This document shows, piece after piece, positions 34,282-61,189 of a stretch of DNA of 64,000 nucleotides (position 1 is the stretch's first letter; each line of letters starts with the position of its first letter). Position numbers and translations under genes: made by a program. This DNA is from Candidatus Latescibacterota bacterium (GTDB lineage: Bacteria; Latescibacterota; UBA2968; SICM01), in contig CBDCJO010000002.1 of NCBI GenBank assembly GCA_965217865.1, positions 4,640,001 through 4,704,000 of the forward strand, written 5' to 3'. The notes beneath the pieces were generated by a model. That model had not been told where the DNA came from. It did no database searches and worked only from the letters and a program-made list of their open reading frames with translations.

Positions 34282-35469
34282 TTGATGAACGTCCGATCCT
34301 CCCTCACATACCGAATCAAGTCTCACGCCCGCGAATTGGGCTTCGAACCCGTCGGGGTTGCGCCCGCAAGCCCTCCGGAGCACTGGCCGTTTTACCTGAA
34401 ATGGATCGATCAGGGTTTTGCCGGAGAGATGGGATATCTCCGCCGGAACCATGCACGTCGACGCGATCCGAAATCGATCCTTCCCCGGGCAAAGTCCATA
34501 CTTTGCGTGGGGATGAGCTACAATCACCTCCAGGGTCCGAACCGGAACGGATCCGGATTGCGCGGCCGGATCGCCAAATATGCGCGTGGGGAGGATTATC
34601 ACGATGTCATGAAAACCCGGCTGTTCCGGTTGCTGGACTTTATCAAGACCGAAGGGGGGCCGGACCTGGAGGGCCGGGTCTACGTCGACACGGGGCCGGT
34701 GCTCGAGCGGGATGCGGCTGCGCGAGCCGGGGTGGGGTGGTTCGGAAAGAACACCTGTCTGATCGACAAGCGGGTCGGATCCTGGCTGCTCCTGGGGGAG
34801 ATTATCCTGGACGTCGTGCTCGAATACGATGCGCCCGTCCCGGACCACTGCGGTACCTGCACGCGTTGTATCGATGCCTGCCCGACCGGGGCGCTACCGG
34901 AACCCTATGTCCTGGACTCCAGAAAATGCATCTCCTACCTGACGATCGAGGTCAAGGGGGATATTCCCGTGGAGATGCGTCCAGGTCTGGGGGATTGGGT
35001 CTTCGGATGCGACATCTGTCAGGATGTCTGTCCGTGGAACCACGAAGCGACCACGACGAATGAACCGGCCTTCGCTCCACGAGACGGACTCGACGCCCCG
35101 CAGCTGACCGATCTCCTGGGGATGGATCAGGCCGCCTTCAGCGGGAAATTCAAGGGGAGCCCGGTCAAGCGGGCAAAACGGAAAGGGTTTCTGAGAAACA
35201 CCGCGGTCGCCCTGGGAAATTCCGGGGATCGGCGGGCGGTACCGGCTCTTGTGGAAGCCTTGAAGGACACCGAACCGCTCGTGAGGAGCCATGCGGCGTG
35301 GGCGCTCGGACGGTTGGGGGGCGAGACCGCACGTGAGGCGTTGAAGGAGGCCCTGGGCAGGGAGGCGGACGAAGGGGTGCTTGAGGAAATCGAGTGGGCA
35401 TTTAAAGAAGTCACGAATCGCGGATCCGGGCCCCTGAGTCAAGAGTCCACATCGGACTCTGACCTTTGA
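34282..35469 (+). CDS. queG: tRNA epoxyqueuosine reductase
   Basis: YARGEDYH, VDTGPVLER, GKNT, CGTCTRCIDACPT, CISYLTIE, FGCDICQDVCPWN, HEAT-repeat tail. Confidence 0.95.
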   Translation: MMNVRSSLTYRIKSHARELGFEPVGVAPASPPEHWPFYLKWIDQGFAGEMGYLRRNHARRRDPKSILPRAKSILCVGMSYNHLQGPNRNGSGLRGRIAKYARGEDYHDVMKTRLFRLLDFIKTEGGPDLEGRVYVDTGPVLERDAAARAGVGWFGKNTCLIDKRVGSWLLLGEIILDVVLEYDAPVPDHCGTCTRCIDACPTGALPEPYVLDSRKCISYLTIEVKGDIPVEMRPGLGDWVFGCDICQDVCPWNHEATTTNEPAFAPRDGLDAPQLTDLLGMDQAAFSGKFKGSPVKRAKRKGFLRNTAVALGNSGDRRAVPALVEALKDTEPLVRSHAAWALGRLGGETAREALKEALGREADEGVLEEIEWAFKEVTNRGSGPLSQESTSDSDL

Positions 35470-49065: not shown

Positions 49066-50591
49066 CAGCCCGTTGAAGAACTACCTTTCAACGCACATAA
49101 ACGGAAAAGACGCCTGGAGTGCGGGTCAGATAAATCAAGGTAAGGAGATTGAGCAGGAGACGCTGATAAGAGGTTAAAAAGGTGACCGAGGGCAGCAAAC
49201 GTGATTGTAGGACGAGCAGTAGACGCTGCAAGGCCTTGGCCAGGTCCTGGAGGGCCTTCGGAGTACCTACGCCCATCACTTTGCGCATGAGCAGAGCCAG
49301 GTTGCAGCCCCCGATGTGGATCAGCAAACGCTTGAGGATATTGCCGCGGTCTCTCAAGTGCAACCTGCGCATGCCACCGGTATCATATGTGTGAGCGATG
49401 GTTCTTTCCACCCGTTCTGCACGACTTCGGCGCAAGGCCTTGCCGCGATCTCCCTTGATCCGGCGTCGATTCGCATATACCGCGGCCTGCTCATCTCGTC
49501 GGCCGTTCCACTTGCGGCGTCCCCGATCCGGTTCTGAAATGTAACTCCGGATGCCGCCTTGCTTCAGACTGGTCAATACATCGTTGCTATGATATCCTTT
49601 GTCCGCAACCACCTCCCGTATACGCTGTCTGTGCAAACGTTTGGCAGCTTTTTCGTCCTTCGCGACCTGCTTGAGATTGAGCGGCGCCTCGAGCAGCGTC
49701 CAGGGCAACGACTCGGTATCTCCTTCATCTGCTCCCGACAACGCCACTGCCACAATGGCATTGGTGTCCAGATCCACCGCGTGCTCCACCTTGTGCGCCA
49801 TGTGCGTGCGACCGTCCTTCATCTTAGCGATCTTGGCATCCGGGTCGTGCGGGTGCTCCCAGTCCTGGTTCGATCCCTTCTTCGGTCGCTTCTTATCGAT
49901 CTTGGACAAGTCCTCGCGGGTAGGCGTTTCAATGCCCGAGGCCTTGGCCAGATTCTCAAGGAATGCCTGGTAGCCTTCACCCGTGTCACGGCGTACAATG
50001 CTGCGCATCGCGGCGTTGGCCTCCAGTGTCGTAGCATCCACGCCCAACGTCTTCCCCTTCACCAGACCCGCTTTGCACAAGACCCTCAGGATCCACTTGA
50101 AAACCGCTTCGTGAACTTCCAAGGGAAGCCGATGCCGGATGCGAGACAGGCTGGAATGATCCGGGGTCTGTTCGTCAAGGGCATACCCCAAAAACCGGCG
50201 CAACGTCAGCGAGTCAGATACACGCCATTCGATCCCACGTTCCGAATCAAGTCCCTCGAAATACCCAATCAAAAGCATCCGAAAATAAACCCCGGGCGGA
50301 ATGCCCTTGCGACCCATATGAGGAGCGTAATACCGCTGGCAAAGCCCCTCGACGAACTCGTCGAAGCCGTTCGCCCCCAATACCTGATTCAGCTTCTCGT
50401 AGAACGGATGACCCGGAGATTTCACCAAAGTGTTCGATGCGATGAACAGGTTTTCCTGTCTCTGTCGTCCTCGTTTTCCCATTGCCATTTGCTCGTCCTC
50501 CCTTCTCAGTTTGAACCTGATATATCATAGGACCAAACCACAAGGAAAGACAACAGTCATCTTGGCATAAACGCACTTTTTCAACAGGCTG
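49066..50591 (-). mobile_element. IS1182/IS5-like DDE insertion sequence, copy A (1526 bp)
   Basis: Terminal IRs CAGCCCGTTGAA / TTCAACAGGCTG flanked on both sides by TTAG. Confidence 0.92.
49088..50488 (-). CDS. DDE transposase (DUF772-type N-terminus)
   Basis: SERGI, TPDHSSLSR, GVDAT, DPDA, VADKGY, R..VER. Confidence 0.92.
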   Translation of the reverse strand: MAMGKRGRQRQENLFIASNTLVKSPGHPFYEKLNQVLGANGFDEFVEGLCQRYYAPHMGRKGIPPGVYFRMLLIGYFEGLDSERGIEWRVSDSLTLRRFLGYALDEQTPDHSSLSRIRHRLPLEVHEAVFKWILRVLCKAGLVKGKTLGVDATTLEANAAMRSIVRRDTGEGYQAFLENLAKASGIETPTREDLSKIDKKRPKKGSNQDWEHPHDPDAKIAKMKDGRTHMAHKVEHAVDLDTNAIVAVALSGADEGDTESLPWTLLEAPLNLKQVAKDEKAAKRLHRQRIREVVADKGYHSNDVLTSLKQGGIRSYISEPDRGRRKWNGRRDEQAAVYANRRRIKGDRGKALRRSRAERVERTIAHTYDTGGMRRLHLRDRGNILKRLLIHIGGCNLALLMRKVMGVGTPKALQDLAKALQRLLLVLQSRLLPSVTFLTSYQRLLLNLLTLIYLTRTPGVFSVYVR

Positions 50592-52354: not shown

Positions 52355-53880
52355 CAGCCTGTTGAAAAAGTGCGTTTATGCCAAGATGACTGTTGTCTTT
52401 CCTTGTGGTTTGGTCCTATGATATATCAGGTTCAAACTGAGAAGGGAGGACGAGCAAATGGCAATGGGAAAACGAGGACGACAGAGACAGGAAAACCTGT
52501 TCATCGCATCGAACACTTTGGTGAAATCTCCGGGTCATCCGTTCTACGAGAAGCTGAATCAGGTATTGGGGGCGAACGGCTTCGACGAGTTCGTCGAGGG
52601 GCTTTGCCAGCGGTATTACGCTCCTCATATGGGTCGCAAGGGCATTCCGCCCGGGGTTTATTTTCGGATGCTTTTGATTGGGTATTTCGAGGGACTTGAT
52701 TCGGAACGTGGGATCGAATGGCGTGTATCTGACTCGCTGACGTTGCGCCGGTTTTTGGGGTATGCCCTTGACGAACAGACCCCGGATCATTCCAGCCTGT
52801 CTCGCATCCGGCATCGGCTTCCCTTGGAAGTTCACGAAGCGGTTTTCAAGTGGATCCTGAGGGTCTTGTGCAAAGCGGGTCTGGTGAAGGGGAAGACGTT
52901 GGGCGTGGATGCTACGACACTGGAGGCCAACGCCGCGATGCGCAGCATTGTACGCCGTGACACGGGTGAAGGCTACCAGGCATTCCTTGAGAATCTGGCC
53001 AAGGCCTCGGGCATTGAAACGCCTACCCGCGAGGACTTGTCCAAGATCGATAAGAAGCGACCGAAGAAGGGATCGAACCAGGACTGGGAGCACCCGCACG
53101 ACCCGGATGCCAAGATCGCTAAGATGAAGGACGGTCGCACGCACATGGCGCACAAGGTGGAGCACGCGGTGGATCTGGACACCAATGCCATTGTGGCAGT
53201 GGCGTTGTCGGGAGCAGATGAAGGAGATACCGAGTCGTTGCCCTGGACGCTGCTCGAGGCGCAGCTCAATCTCAAGCAGGTCGCGAAGGACGAAAAAGCT
53301 GCCAAACGTTTGCACAGACAGCGTATACGGGAGGTGGTTGCGGACAAAGGATATCATAGCAACGATGTATTGACCAGTCTGAAGCAAGGCGGCATCCGGA
53401 GTTACATTTCAGAACCGGATCGGGGACGCCGCAAGTGGAACGGCCGACGAGATGAGCAGGCCGCGGTATATGCGAATCGACGCCGGATCAAGGGAGATCG
53501 CGGCAAGGCCTTGCGCCGAAGTCGTGCAGAACGGGTGGAAAGAACCATCGCTCACACATATGATACCGGTGGCATGCGCAGGTTGCACTTGAGAGACCGC
53601 GGCAATATCCTCAAGCGTTTGCTGATCCACATCGGGGGCTGCAACCTGGCTCTGCTCATGCGCAAAGTGATGGGCGTAGGTACTCCGAAGGCCCTCCAGG
53701 ACCTGGCCAAGGCCTTGCAGCGTCTACTGCTCGTCCTACAATCACGTTTGCTGCCCTCGGTCACCTTTTTAACCTCTTATCAGCGTCTCCTGCTCAATCT
53801 CCTTACCTTGATTTATCTGACCCGCACTCCAGGCGTCTTTTCCGTTTATGTGCGTTGAAAGGTAGTTCTTCAACGGGCTG
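52355..53880 (+). mobile_element. IS1182/IS5-like DDE insertion sequence, copy B (1526 bp), inverted relative to copy A
   Basis: Terminal IRs CAGCCTGTTGAA / TTCAACGGGCTG flanked on both sides by CTAG. Confidence 0.92.
52458..53858 (+). CDS. DDE transposase, copy B
   Basis: Identical to copy A except EAQLN vs EAPLN. Confidence 0.92.
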   Translation: MAMGKRGRQRQENLFIASNTLVKSPGHPFYEKLNQVLGANGFDEFVEGLCQRYYAPHMGRKGIPPGVYFRMLLIGYFEGLDSERGIEWRVSDSLTLRRFLGYALDEQTPDHSSLSRIRHRLPLEVHEAVFKWILRVLCKAGLVKGKTLGVDATTLEANAAMRSIVRRDTGEGYQAFLENLAKASGIETPTREDLSKIDKKRPKKGSNQDWEHPHDPDAKIAKMKDGRTHMAHKVEHAVDLDTNAIVAVALSGADEGDTESLPWTLLEAQLNLKQVAKDEKAAKRLHRQRIREVVADKGYHSNDVLTSLKQGGIRSYISEPDRGRRKWNGRRDEQAAVYANRRRIKGDRGKALRRSRAERVERTIAHTYDTGGMRRLHLRDRGNILKRLLIHIGGCNLALLMRKVMGVGTPKALQDLAKALQRLLLVLQSRLLPSVTFLTSYQRLLLNLLTLIYLTRTPGVFSVYVR

Positions 53881-57738: not shown

Positions 57739-58242
57739 TCAACCCGGCTTCCGATCTATCAACGTTCGGAGCTCGAGGTAGTATTCAAGTTTTCGATCTC
57801 GAGGGATGGGAAGGGCCCGACTGGTGGAAGGGGCGAGGTAAACAGGTACCCCGCTGAGGCCCTCTTCCTGAAGTCCATAGGTACACGGCCGGTTGAGGAT
57901 TACCCCATAGCCGCTCTTACCGTTGAAACAGACGATCCGCGGAAGAGCCTCCCGGATCTTTTCTTTGAGAGCTTGGAAGTTCGTCCGGAATTCTCCCGGG
58001 GATAGGTCTCCGACACCGGGCGTGGATCGTTTGACCATGTCTGTGAGTCCTAGATTGTAGTTGAGAATCAGGGCGTCTTCTTCGGGTTTGAGCCTGCGGT
58101 CTGTGAACCCCGATTCAAAAAGGAAAGGCCAAAACTGGTTTCCCCTTCCGGCATAGTAATGGCCCAGAAGGGCTGACCGGGTCCCGGGATTCAACCCGAC
58201 AAAGACGACATCGAGCCCGGATTTGAGGTAATCGGGGAGCAA
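57739..58242 (-). CDS. mug: Mismatch-specific uracil/thymine DNA glycosylase (start uncertain)
   Basis: LPDYL..LDVVFVGLNPG, HYYAGRGNQFW, LAPSTS. Confidence 0.88.
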   Translation of the reverse strand: MLPDYLKSGLDVVFVGLNPGTRSALLGHYYAGRGNQFWPFLFESGFTDRRLKPEEDALILNYNLGLTDMVKRSTPGVGDLSPGEFRTNFQALKEKIREALPRIVCFNGKSGYGVILNRPCTYGLQEEGLSGVPVYLAPSTSRALPIPRDRKLEYYLELRTLIDRKPG

Positions 58243-58427
58243 TGAACGATCGAAGTGTGGTATCTGTTGGAGGGGATGACTACGGGATTCGCTGCTGTCG
58301 TTTCTTAACCTTGTGCGGGGTTTCACGATCCGGTTGCCCGTAAAATACACCCGCAAATCGCCTGTGTCAATTGACTTTTCCAGTTGATATTACTAAATTT
58401 ATTCGAACTGATCGGATCAACGACTCG

Positions 58428-59171
58428 ATGGGCAATCCCGTAAAACAAAAAGAAGCGTTGGGGACACTGTTTGCGGTGGCCACCCCGATTGGAAATCTCG
58501 AGGATATCACTTATCGTGCTGTTCGCACGTTGAGCCAAGTCGATGCCTTAGCCTGTGAGGATACCCGTTATACACGAAGGATCTTTGAGAGATACCGGAT
58601 CTCCAAACCCGGGAAGGTATTCTCGTATCACGAGCATAACGAAGAAAGAGCCGGCACGCGGATCGTTGGTTTGTTGAGGGATGGTCGTTCGGTGGCGCTG
58701 TGTACGGACAGCGGATTTCCCGGCATTAGCGATCCCGGCTACCGCATCATATCGAAGTGTCTCGATGCCGGAATTCCCGTGGAGGTCATCCCCGGAGGGG
58801 GGGCGGTTTCCGCTGCTCTCCTGAACTCCGGCTTGCCAACATCGAGTTATACCTTCAAAGGATTTCCCCCGAGGAAACCCGGTCCCCAAATCAGGTTTCT
58901 GGAGATGGAGCAAGACATGCCCCACACGATGGTGTTGTTTGAGTCGCCTCATCGTGTCGGGAGATTATTGAGGAATGCGCTTGATGTGCTGGGAAATAGA
59001 AAAGCGGCCGTCTGCATCGAAATGACGAAGAAATTCGAAGAGATTCACAGAGGGTTCCTCGGAGAGCTTTCGGATCGATTTCGAGACACCAAGATCAGGG
59101 GAGAGGTGACGGTGGTCATCGCCGGAAAACACCCCAAATTTATTAAACAGGATGAACCTGATGTTTCTTAG
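58428..59171 (+). CDS. rsmI: 16S rRNA C1402 2'-O-methyltransferase
   Basis: VATPIGNLEDIT.RA, CEDTR, ISDPG, FESPHR, EMTKKFEE. Confidence 0.94.
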   Translation: MGNPVKQKEALGTLFAVATPIGNLEDITYRAVRTLSQVDALACEDTRYTRRIFERYRISKPGKVFSYHEHNEERAGTRIVGLLRDGRSVALCTDSGFPGISDPGYRIISKCLDAGIPVEVIPGGGAVSAALLNSGLPTSSYTFKGFPPRKPGPQIRFLEMEQDMPHTMVLFESPHRVGRLLRNALDVLGNRKAAVCIEMTKKFEEIHRGFLGELSDRFRDTKIRGEVTVVIAGKHPKFIKQDEPDVS

Positions 59172-59225
59172 TGGAAAAAGGAGGCCTTTCGGAGTTCGGT
59201 TTTTGTTGGGCTCTTTGGGATTTTC

Positions 59226-60332
59226 GTGAAGCGGCTTCGGACCAATCATGGCGTTCTTTCCCTCCCGTCCTTTCTACCCGACGCCACCAGGGCGGTCGTA
59301 AAATCCCTGGATGCCTCGGACCTCACCGAATGCGGTGTGAAGGGCCTCGTGGTCAACACGCTGCATCTCTCATCTCACCCTGGAACCTCTTTGATCTCCA
59401 AACAGGGAGGCGTCCATCGGTTCATGGGGTGGGATAACCCCATCATCTCAGACTCGGGGGGATACCAGGTCTATTCCTTAATATCTGAATCTCCGAAGTC
59501 GGGGGGGATCACCAGCAGGGGGTTCACATATCGCCTTGGGGGTGGCGTCAAAAAGGTCCTGACCCCCGAAAACTGCATCCAGAAACAGTGTCAAATCGGA
59601 TCGGATATCCTGGTTTGTCTGGACCATTGTACGCACCCGGACGATCCGAGGGAACTTCAGGAAACGAGCGTCAACAACACGGTCGAATGGGCCCGAAGAT
59701 GCAAGGCGGCGTTTCAGAAGAGGATGGAACAGAACCCTCCCGACGGATCGCCCCCTCTGATTTTTGCTGTCATCCAGGGGGGATCGGATCCCGACTTGAG
59801 GCGTTCTTGCTTTGAGCGGTTGTTGGAGATCGGTTTCGATGGGTACGGATACGGAGGGTGGCCGATCGATTCCAAGGGAAGACTCTTGGATATGCTCGAA
59901 TTCGTTGCGGGATTGATCCCGAACGAGTTTCCGAAACACGCTCTCGGGGTGGGCAAACCCGAAAACCTGGTACGCGCTTTCACGATGGGATATAACCTTT
60001 TCGATTGCGCGATTCCCACCCGCGATGCTCGCCACAAGCGGTTATATGTGTTTAACGAGGGATCGGATAATAAAGATCGGGACCGGGATTCTTTCTTCCA
60101 TCCCTTTTTCATCTCGGATAAGAGATATGTTCGGGATGGTCGGCCCATCGATGAGCGATGCAAATGTGTGTGTTGTCGTCGCTACTCGCGGTCTTATCTC
60201 CACCATCTTTTCAAGATTCGAGATTCCCTTGCACCCCGCCTTGCCACGATGCACAATTTGACCTTTTACACCGATCTGTTAAAAAAACTGGCGAAATCTC
60301 AAAAACCTGAGAGATCAAAACCTCAATTATAA
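59226..60332 (+). CDS. tgt: tRNA-guanine transglycosylase family protein, non-canonical
   Basis: NTLHL, DSGGYQ, LDHC, IQGG, FDC..PTR, CKCVCC..HNL zinc site; FLPDAT and GGWP replace the usual FMPVGT and GGLA/S. Confidence 0.85.
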   Translation: MKRLRTNHGVLSLPSFLPDATRAVVKSLDASDLTECGVKGLVVNTLHLSSHPGTSLISKQGGVHRFMGWDNPIISDSGGYQVYSLISESPKSGGITSRGFTYRLGGGVKKVLTPENCIQKQCQIGSDILVCLDHCTHPDDPRELQETSVNNTVEWARRCKAAFQKRMEQNPPDGSPPLIFAVIQGGSDPDLRRSCFERLLEIGFDGYGYGGWPIDSKGRLLDMLEFVAGLIPNEFPKHALGVGKPENLVRAFTMGYNLFDCAIPTRDARHKRLYVFNEGSDNKDRDRDSFFHPFFISDKRYVRDGRPIDERCKCVCCRRYSRSYLHHLFKIRDSLAPRLATMHNLTFYTDLLKKLAKSQKPERSKPQL

Positions 60333-60337
60333 AACGG

Positions 60338-61189
60338 GTGGATATCTCTTTACGCGCTTCAACCCACAGATCATGTATGGAGCAAAGCGTCCCTCACCAG
60401 ATGGTAAGCGACCTTCGGAGGACCCGAAAATACCGAGAACTATGTGAGGACACGCTTTATCGTGCGGCTTCCTGGGCTCTGATGCGTCACAAAACACCGA
60501 AGGAGGCTCTGAAGGCCGCCAAACGCAAACTTCATCAAGTATACGGGGCCTATTTGAACGGGATCGATTTCGGGAAGTTAGAGGACTGGATCGATAACCT
60601 GTCCTCCTCATCTTCTCAATCCTCCCTTCGAGAAACCTGCCTCCGGATCCTCGATTGCCAGACCTCCACGGCAGAACGGGTCCCAATTCTCGACTCGTGT
60701 TTTTCCGACCTTTTCCGGGAAACGGGTGAGCCGACGAGCATCCTGGACCTGGCGTGTGGGCTTAATCCGTTTGCCTTGCCGTGGATGGGCGTTTCCCCGA
60801 ATATGTCGTATTTCGCCTGGGATGTCGATAAACGGTTGATTTCAGCGACGAACGAATTTTTTATTCGTACGGGTCGGCCTCCCACGGCTGAGTTCCTGGA
60901 CGTCCTGGCCTCACCCCTGGACCTGCGCGTGGACGTGGTTTTCCTTCTCAAGTCGCTCCCCTTTCTGGAACAACAGGAAAAATGGTTCGGTGCCCGGTTG
61001 CTTCGTGAGGCGAACGCCCGGTTTGCGGTGATATCTTTTCCGGCCCGGTCGATCGGAGGGAGAGACAAAGGCATGGTGAGGCACTATGAACGGTTTATGG
61101 AGAAAATGACCGGGGAGCTCGGTTTATCAGTGAGCAAACATGTGTATCCGACGGAAACCTTCTACGCCTGCAACCTCGACGGCCGATAA
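60338..61189 (+). CDS. 16S rRNA m7G1405 methyltransferase homologue (ArmA/Rmt/Sgm/FmrO family)
   Basis: KRKLHQVYGAY, STAER, LDLACGLNP, LLKSLP.LEQQ, VISFP.RSIGGR.KGM...Y. Confidence 0.88.
   Translation: MDISLRASTHRSCMEQSVPHQMVSDLRRTRKYRELCEDTLYRAASWALMRHKTPKEALKAAKRKLHQVYGAYLNGIDFGKLEDWIDNLSSSSSQSSLRETCLRILDCQTSTAERVPILDSCFSDLFRETGEPTSILDLACGLNPFALPWMGVSPNMSYFAWDVDKRLISATNEFFIRTGRPPTAEFLDVLASPLDLRVDVVFLLKSLPFLEQQEKWFGARLLREANARFAVISFPARSIGGRDKGMVRHYERFMEKMTGELGLSVSKHVYPTETFYACNLDGR

Follow-up and report, generated by a model that had tools for sequence, protein, structure and literature searches.

The subject of this study is a gene pair in a stretch of 64,000 nucleotides (hereafter the window) from Candidatus Latescibacterota bacterium (GenBank assembly GCA_965217865.1, contig CBDCJO010000002.1, positions 4,640,001 to 4,704,000 of the forward strand), in which a paralogue of tRNA-guanine transglycosylase (TGT) precedes a gene of the Rmt/FmrO family of 16S ribosomal RNA (rRNA) methyltransferases. 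The two are a two-enzyme unit that is functionally undescribed in the literature searched, and the Rmt-coupled TGT is a new TGT subfamily; the search, made mostly without subscription journals and without supplements, returned no functional account of this TGT branch. As background, RsmI acts on C1402 and ArmA/Rmt act on G1405 of 16S helix 44, Rmt enzymes methylate G1405 with the base flipped out, and base exchange by TGTs proceeds via a covalent intermediate at Asp280. From our point of view, the two enzymes could act in succession, namely that the Rmt enzyme generates 7-methylguanine (m7G) at G1405 and the TGT then replaces it with 7-aminomethyl-7-deazaguanine (preQ1), a mechanism that we infer and propose tentatively, giving it somewhat less than an even chance. 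The genes concerned are:

58428..59171, plus strand: rsmI, 16S rRNA C1402 2'-O-methyltransferase (TIGR00096 189.5 bits, above the cut-off of 167.9)
59226..60332, plus strand: Rmt-coupled TGT paralogue, 368 amino acids (TIGR00430 301.8 bits, just below its cut-off; PF01702 E 1.9e-93)
60377..61189, plus strand: Rmt/FmrO-family 16S rRNA m7G1405 methyltransferase-like gene, 270 amino acids (NF000466, PF07091)

Co-occurrence of the TGT paralogue and the methyltransferase

Pattern scans returned at least 540 relatives of the paralogue in GTDB and at least 534 in metagenomes, of which the best 80 each were kept as a set of 160 loci. Since an Rmt-like gene is present in 147 of these 160 related loci (in 135 as the next gene downstream or fused), the two genes cluster far beyond chance; six of the 13 loci without an Rmt-like gene have less than 500 nucleotides of downstream sequence. 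RsmI, found in 70 of the 160, is a frequent and not a constant member. Among the hosts are members of the Latescibacterota, Gemmatimonadota, Chloroflexota, Bacillota, Ignavibacteriales, Bacteroidia, Planctomycetota, Acidobacteriota, Armatimonadota, Nitrospiraceae and Spirochaetales, one actinobacterium, and at least one cultured organism, Ornatilinea apprima (locus L056).

For the test in the opposite direction, two phyla were sampled evenly, with one known positive genome in each sample, and the threshold for the paralogue (E 1e-105) was set after canonical copies had scored about 1e-78. In the host phylum, FmrO scored above its cut-off in 13 of 121 genomes and the paralogue was found in the identical 13, directly upstream in every one, and in the Chloroflexota both genes occurred in the identical 22 of 101 genomes, at most 1.5 kb apart in 20 of them. 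No orphan of either gene was found among the 35 carriers in these 222 genomes. Where the genes are unlinked they still tend to share a genome: both genomes with an unlinked Rmt carry the paralogue elsewhere, and of the five genomes in which the TGT stands apart, four carry an Rmt elsewhere and the fifth is a 2.9-Mb draft. As kin are not independent, no p-value is attached to the co-occurrence. An earlier note, made by a model from the letters of the window alone, had proposed that the paralogue is functionally tied to the methyltransferase and had suggested testing their co-occurrence; the link is indeed kept across many phyla as well as at genome level, with identical carrier genomes in both samples. 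Such strict co-occurrence in both directions suggests either that the two enzymes share a pathway leading to a single product, or that the writer imposes a cost when its remover is missing.

Fused forms also exist, with TGT joined to FmrO in L017 (663 amino acids) and P0364 (628 amino acids) and RsmI joined to TGT in P0382. When tree distances were compared over 35 genomes, the correlation was 0.58 between TGT and Rmt, 0.46 between TGT and canonical Tgt and 0.34 between Rmt and canonical Tgt, with a partial rank correlation of 0.50, which fits a transfer of TGT and Rmt as a unit, a pattern equally expected of any adjacent genes. A prediction of the TGT-Rmt complex gave scores of 0.44, 0.00 and 0.00 and weighs neither way. 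Viral contigs held no relatives, and a sample of the Actinomycetota scanned for producer-type FmrO genes gave scores above the cut-off in only 2 of 401, one being the centre genome and the other a divergent copy. The single 16S gene of L252 has an intact G1405, and its 1409-1491 pair (E. coli numbering) is A-U and not C-G.

One could imagine that the TGT is simply a redundant Tgt copy hitchhiking in an RNA-modification operon without a substrate in common with Rmt, given that adjacent genes move together whatever their function, and that the paralogue is labelled tgt by RefSeq and likewise named in the available text of PMC9311965 and PMC3904158. This explanation appears highly improbable to us, as the co-occurrence also holds for unlinked genes, fusions exist, the novel residues described below are invariant, and a second TGT lineage independently adjoins an FmrO-like gene.

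A separate branch of TGTs

A profile search of the host genome revealed two PF01702 genes. The second, a canonical tgt of the kind that the earlier note had considered possible, lies at C2:2258249-2259331 beside a yajC-like gene; its product shows 34% identity to the paralogue, with Val at position 45 and Glu at position 235. Besides queG, genes queA, queC, queE and queF are located elsewhere in the genome, where tandem QueC copies (host genome G000, C1:23722-25143 and C1:21500-22048) were also seen adjoining QueF. Of the 80 GTDB genomes that carry the paralogue, 79 have two or more PF01702 matches (fragments at contig ends account for some of these), the exception being a draft genome (G032) in which the paralogue alone was found.

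In a FastTree phylogeny of 123 proteins, 84 paralogues fall on one side of a branch (Shimodaira-Hasegawa support 98, stem 1.01), with 36 canonical and three archaeal-type TGTs on the opposite side; all trees in this study are FastTree trees without bootstrap and with long-branch warnings. The GGWP-type TGTs, whose phylogeny the earlier note had suggested building, thus form a distinct clade, apart from both canonical and archaeal-type enzymes. Ratios of nonsynonymous to synonymous substitution rates range from 0.07 to 0.34 across 12 close pairs, and the clade is under purifying selection. The GGWP-type TGT falls outside the queuosine Tgt equivalog, narrowly missing the cut-off of TIGR00430, the bacterial queuosine Tgt profile (306.75 bits). 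It passes the cut-offs of the TGT superfamily (TIGR00449, PF01702), with the barrel fold, Asp102/Asp280 and the zinc site, and stays far below those for archaeosine TGTs (TIGR00432, 93.8 against 350) and DpdA (18.8 against 200). In genome G167 (C1:2219857-2220915; L168) the profile match to the paralogue holds one TAA, either a true stop near an end or a break.

For the comparison of residues, 194 paralogues from the loci, near-duplicates included, were set against 36 canonical enzymes (35 from carrier genomes and the host's own copy), in Zymomonas mobilis numbering. The paralogues keep Asp102 (193/194), Asp156 (194), Cys158 (193), Gln203 (192), Asp280 (194), Arg286 and Arg289 (194/194 each), Gly230 and the zinc ligands (186-193/194), and largely keep the dimer residues Phe92, Tyr330, His333 and Asp/Glu339. 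Position 45 is Asp in all 194 paralogues and Val in 34 of the 36 canonical enzymes, Leu231 has become Trp in 193 of 194, and position 232, where canonical enzymes most commonly have Ser (24), Ala (6), Gly (4) or Cys (2), is invariably Pro. Glu235, present in 36/36 canonical enzymes, is variable, and Asp267 is mostly Asn (139/194), a position that is Asp in just 24 of the 36 canonical sequences. His258 and Leu260 occur in most paralogues. The paralogue further bears a 14-residue insert, and its tail past the zinc His is shorter (median 19 against 40 amino acids), so that the last helix is missing. All motifs that the earlier note had quoted (FLPDAT, DSGG, LDHC, QG, GGWPIDS, ALGVG, FDC and the zinc site) are present in the translation. 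As an aside, the canonical Tgt of the L001 genome (1477-2637) has GGTGVGE in place of GGL[AS]VGE, a feature common to one related genome.

Taken with the sequence conservation, the paralogue looks like an active enzyme with a fixed new specificity. According to the available text of PMC3660597, guanine N7 is bound in canonical Tgt by the Ala232 amide via water, the Leu231/Ala232 bond flips together with Glu235 and then offers its carbonyl to preQ1, and the exchange Cys158Val reduces affinity for preQ1 and not for guanine. As a proline at position 232 cannot donate to N7, the peptide switch would be lost in the paralogue, with the preQ1 determinant Cys158 retained. The pocket forms GGLAVG and GG[LS][AS]G are given in the available text of PMC11570991, which contains no GGWP.

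Val45 floors the ribose-34 pocket of the canonical enzyme (PMC5395182, available text). The invariant Asp45 of the paralogue could favour hydrolysis, in which case the TGT might be a glycosylase or poison for unmethylated G1405 against which Rmt protects, a restriction-like arrangement that would also suit the patchy distribution and the signs of unit transfer. The chances of this are remote in our opinion: protective methylases usually persist as orphans, of which the two phylum samples contain none, the pocket seems worse for plain guanine, and the context is one of housekeeping genes with no viral copies.

The AlphaFold model of the paralogue (predicted local distance difference test 90.6) matches Z. 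mobilis Tgt in Foldseek with a template modelling score of 0.86-0.87. This Tgt-like fold, together with the largely kept dimer residues, queA directly upstream in two loci and the usual TGT substrate, an unmodified G in a loop, would also be in line with an enzyme that puts preQ1 or a relative at another guanine, in rRNA or in a transfer RNA (tRNA) or other RNA that canonical Tgt does not serve, and that is co-selected with Rmt because both tune decoding. We consider this rather unlikely: so loose a link should leave orphans, of which the 35 carriers among 222 genomes showed none, a canonical Tgt is already present in nearly all carriers, and the paralogue has lost the last helix.

The methyltransferase partner

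The Rmt-like protein (METHYLTRANSFERASE) scores 132.4 bits with Pfam FmrO (PF07091, E 2.6e-38), well above the cut-off of 27, and 217.7 bits with NF000466, below the cut-off of 250; its nearest structures are Sgm (E 5e-43) and then RmtC. The essential residues of RmtC, which moves G1405 by about 18 Å, are named in a mutational table of PMC10054953, as far as that paper was available. Of the RmtC positions, K20, Y21, K43, K47, H54, Y60, S107, D160, K204, R241 and M245 are kept in the Rmt-like protein, which has K for R50 and R for K236. Among the 12 residues that are essential in RmtC, namely K20, Y21, R39, K47, R50, H54, Y60, K204, R211, K236, R241 and M245, 10 are identical or basic-for-basic, with R39 aligning one position off and left unscored and R211 being Gln, as it is in 28 of 34 members of this Rmt branch. 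The clinical enzymes RmtG, RmtD1, RmtB2 and RmtE2 nest with Bacillota members of the module. This nesting and the conservation of RmtC residues make N7 methylation of G1405 the probable native activity.

These properties also bear on an inverted order of events, in which the TGT would insert preQ1 at G1405 and the Rmt-like enzyme would methylate its exocyclic amine. Methyl-preQ1 occurs in phage DNA, and the mutual dependence and the que neighbours would be explained equally well. We nevertheless judge this order very unlikely, as annotated G1405-N7 methyltransferases (RmtG, RmtD1, RmtB2, RmtE2) nest among the partners, the N7-positioning residues Y60 and K204 are conserved, and Pro232 is a poor fit for guanine as the leaving base.

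A second Rmt-like paralogue is present in 20 of the 160 loci (L056, L057, L072, L019, L020, L043 and others) and mostly forms a branch of its own (15 rows, support 97). One sibling Rmt-like record ends early, at 171 amino acids.

Proposed base exchange at G1405

In the sequence of events that we favour, Rmt would methylate N7 of 16S rRNA G1405, after which the TGT would cut out 7-methylguanine and put in preQ1. Canonical Tgt needs the Glu235-controlled Leu231-Ala232 flip because guanine (an N7 acceptor) and preQ1 (an amine donor) differ, whereas a Pro232 without an NH donor, combined with the loss of Glu235, fits two bases with cationic 7-substituents. As both m7G and preQ1 carry such a substituent, the peptide switch would be needless. 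The que neighbours could provide the incoming base, and position 1405 would end up with a 7-deaza base that is chemically stable. Access to the nucleotide might be gained in two ways: Rmt may present the base, which the fusions would permit, or the exchange by the TGT may take place while helix 44 is still open.

The single parts of this scheme deserve different degrees of confidence. The methyltransferase partner points to G1405, and it is quite likely that the RNA target of the paralogue is helix 44 and not tRNA; that the incoming base is preQ1 appears likely on balance; and we infer that m7G is the outgoing one. The earlier note had read the changed pocket as a sign of a different base or RNA substrate. 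This would be apt for the outgoing base and the RNA, and not for the incoming base, for which the retained Cys158 and the que neighbours point to preQ1. Inserted preQ1 is not displaceable by guanine, its insertion being essentially irreversible, and preQ1 in 16S rRNA was merely speculated on in an older study (both from the available text of PMC8136771).

One candidate argument was not counted, namely that C1404-G1405-U1406 mimics U33-G34-U35 with the exchange Asp267 to Asn reading C, since a literature search gave no account of the role of Asp267 and the residue is Asp in only 24 of 36 canonical enzymes.

Neighbouring genes

Besides RsmI, the decoding-site methyltransferases RsmF (13), RsmH (5) and RsmE (4) are neighbours of the module in 161 loci, as are the 7-deazaguanine functions QueE (9, mostly in one Latescibacterota/Gemmatimonadota context), QueD (3), QueA (3) and the YhhQ/Vut transporter (5). 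The neighbours thus modify C1402, C1407 or U1498, or supply preQ1. In Thermoflexus the order is yhhQ-rsmI-tgt-rmt-rmt-rsmF-rsmE. An operon in a Solirubrobacteraceae genome (L273 4101-9341, minus strand) reads queE-queD-queC-rsmI-tgt-rmt-queF. Every que gene in it passes its NCBIfam cut-off, and no other true queC is present in the genome, where the pocket of the canonical Tgt is of an unusual form, GGSLG. In the class of this genome (G071), no further carrier was found among 300 others (1/301 overall), and QueC is present in 33 of 151 genomes.

It is in this context that an eraser function has to be considered, in which the TGT would remove m7G1405 and restore guanine, so that resistance methylation would be reversible and the block of RsmI and RsmF relieved. 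This would account for the strict co-occurrence as well as for the grouping of the module with RsmI, RsmF and RsmH, Pro232 is compatible with m7G as the leaving base, plasmid-borne Rmt under drug selection mostly lacks the TGT, and m7G1405 made by ArmA impedes RsmI and costs fitness (PMC3923132, available text). We nonetheless regard restoration of guanine as unlikely: a pocket that has lost the NH donor should be less suited to guanine as the base that enters, Cys158 is retained in 193 of 194 paralogues, and the que neighbours and the que operon would be left unexplained. The exchange of m7G for preQ1 would involve these neighbours as the source of the incoming base.

Occurrence on clinical plasmids

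The same TGT branch is found on clinical plasmids. It precedes rmtG in the order rsmH-tgt-rmtG-partial rsmI, stands before rmtD1 and, with one gene between, before rmtB2, and a copy without its 5' part precedes rmtE2. The plasmid copies are 46-51% identical, with Asp45 and GGWP in all three full-length copies aligned. In the available text of PMC9311965 and PMC3904158, a tgt or putative tRNA ribosyltransferase is mentioned beside rmt, adjacency being given and no function assigned; the open reading frame beside rmtG, rmtD1, rmtB2 and rmtE2 belongs to the branch described here, and these papers, as far as available, keep it undivided from canonical Tgt. Rmt was found on 1591 plasmid records, and the TGT branch makes up 15 among the 50 TGT matches listed (69 in all). 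One could speculate that m7G1405 is in native hosts an activated intermediate that is swapped for preQ1 and that clinical rmt genes represent a captured first half of the pathway, an idea that we find attractive and also somewhat doubtful.

A second pairing of TGT and FmrO folds

It appears that a pairing of TGT with FmrO arose on two occasions. A TGT of the archaeosine type (TIGR00432, E 1e-67 to 1e-69, below the cut-off) directly precedes a divergent FmrO-like gene in an actinomycete (where the cluster also has carbamoyltransferase- and polyketide-like genes), in an Aminicenantes member and in an Acidobacteriota metagenome-assembled genome (L249 6450-8376; L230 4006-6012; L231 2981-4981). 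No preQ0 genes were seen at these three loci. This TGT has at least 472 relatives, some named from Micromonospora, Actinokineospora and Nocardia; in samples of 251 and 301 genomes the branch was found in the centre genome only, and on no plasmid. The second pairing supports a real biochemical link between the TGT and FmrO folds, and its chemistry may differ because the pocket differs.

Organization of the locus

The three genes lie on the same strand, as the earlier note had described, and all are intact; no further copy of rsmI was found in the host genome. That note had placed TGT and Rmt 5 nucleotides apart, a distance that rests on a longer frame from GTG 60338. As the protein on record has 270 amino acids from ATG 60377 and the reading frame is shifted by indels at 60348 in related strains, translation probably starts at ATG 60377, which would make the gap 44 nucleotides. 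The G+C content of the three genes is 52-55% (window 55%). In one RNA sequencing run, reads fell in 14 of 30 bins, all inside tgt and rmt, which is no demonstration of transcription. A terminator scan at the locus remained at chance level, and the number of promoter-like hexamer pairs upstream of rsmI is not above chance (3 against 2.0 +/- 1.4). Two further features complete the picture:

58342..58399, both strands: promoter-like hexamer pairs, by consensus match only, between a divergent uracil-DNA glycosylase-like gene and rsmI
about 34315..35313, plus strand: queG, outside the module, which marks a queuosine pathway in the host, as the earlier note had stated

The divergent gene, of the Mug-type uracil-DNA glycosylases (57739-58356, minus strand), is not a recurring neighbour in related loci. 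Elsewhere in the window, two near-identical transposase-like open reading frames of 466 amino acids (49088-50488 and 52458-53858) stand inverted to each other with three small genes between them, presumably HIT-like, lipoprotein-like and glyoxalase-like, an arrangement that resembles a composite transposon.

Discussion

Several points weigh against the proposed exchange of m7G for preQ1 at G1405. The mechanism is deduced here from sequences and the base exchange is a prediction; the pocket argument in particular is drawn from a sequence alignment. In the mature 30S subunit, G1405 lies buried in a base pair (PMC10054953, available text), whereas known TGTs need a loop. The plasmid-borne Rmt is mostly found without the TGT, from which it follows that Rmt works alone in clinical settings. 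Most loci have no que neighbours, those that do come from about five lineages, and the full operon was seen once; given that QueC is fairly widespread in that class, the module could have entered a que operon by chance. The Rmt copy of the host strain has private changes at near-invariant positions (His95Gln and Cys196Phe, absent in a 91%-identical sibling) and may be weakened. Lastly, the second-pairing TGT keeps an archaeal-style GSLVP pocket, which misfits the same pocket logic.

If the exchange at G1405 is true, it would be a categorically new pathway with a 7-deazaguanine as a base of ribosomal RNA. It would further offer an answer to the questions of what Rmt-type enzymes do in non-producers outside clinics and where the clinical genes originate. 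There would also be a TGT acting on rRNA, together with a decoding site that contains 7-deazaguanine or else a demethylase working by base exchange, and bacterial RNA erasers are called rare in the available text of a 2026 review (PMC13602947). Mechanism aside, a whole TGT branch is mislabelled in databases as the queuosine enzyme. With Ornatilinea apprima as a cultured carrier, native rRNA is directly analysable.

Comparison with known systems

With bacterial Tgt (EC 2.4.2.29; Z. mobilis, E. coli), the paralogue shares the barrel with its zinc subdomain, as reflected in the structural match and sequence identity given above. It differs in its separate clade, in Val45Asp, Trp231-Pro232 and the loss of Glu235, in the insert and the missing last helix, as well as in being tied to Rmt and additional to a canonical Tgt in nearly all carriers. 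The Rmt-like gene resembles Rmt, ArmA and Sgm in that the residues for RmtC docking, helix-44 distortion and catalysis are mostly kept, and differs from them in being chromosomal, in residing in environmental bacteria, in lacking a producer context and in having a TGT partner. TgtA and DpdA provide the precedent for a TGT fold that has been redirected to another site or nucleic acid, and His258 and Leu260 of the paralogue are presumably akin to DpdA/TgtA motifs; we know of no Rmt-type methyltransferase partner for either enzyme, which sets the Rmt-coupled TGT apart from them.

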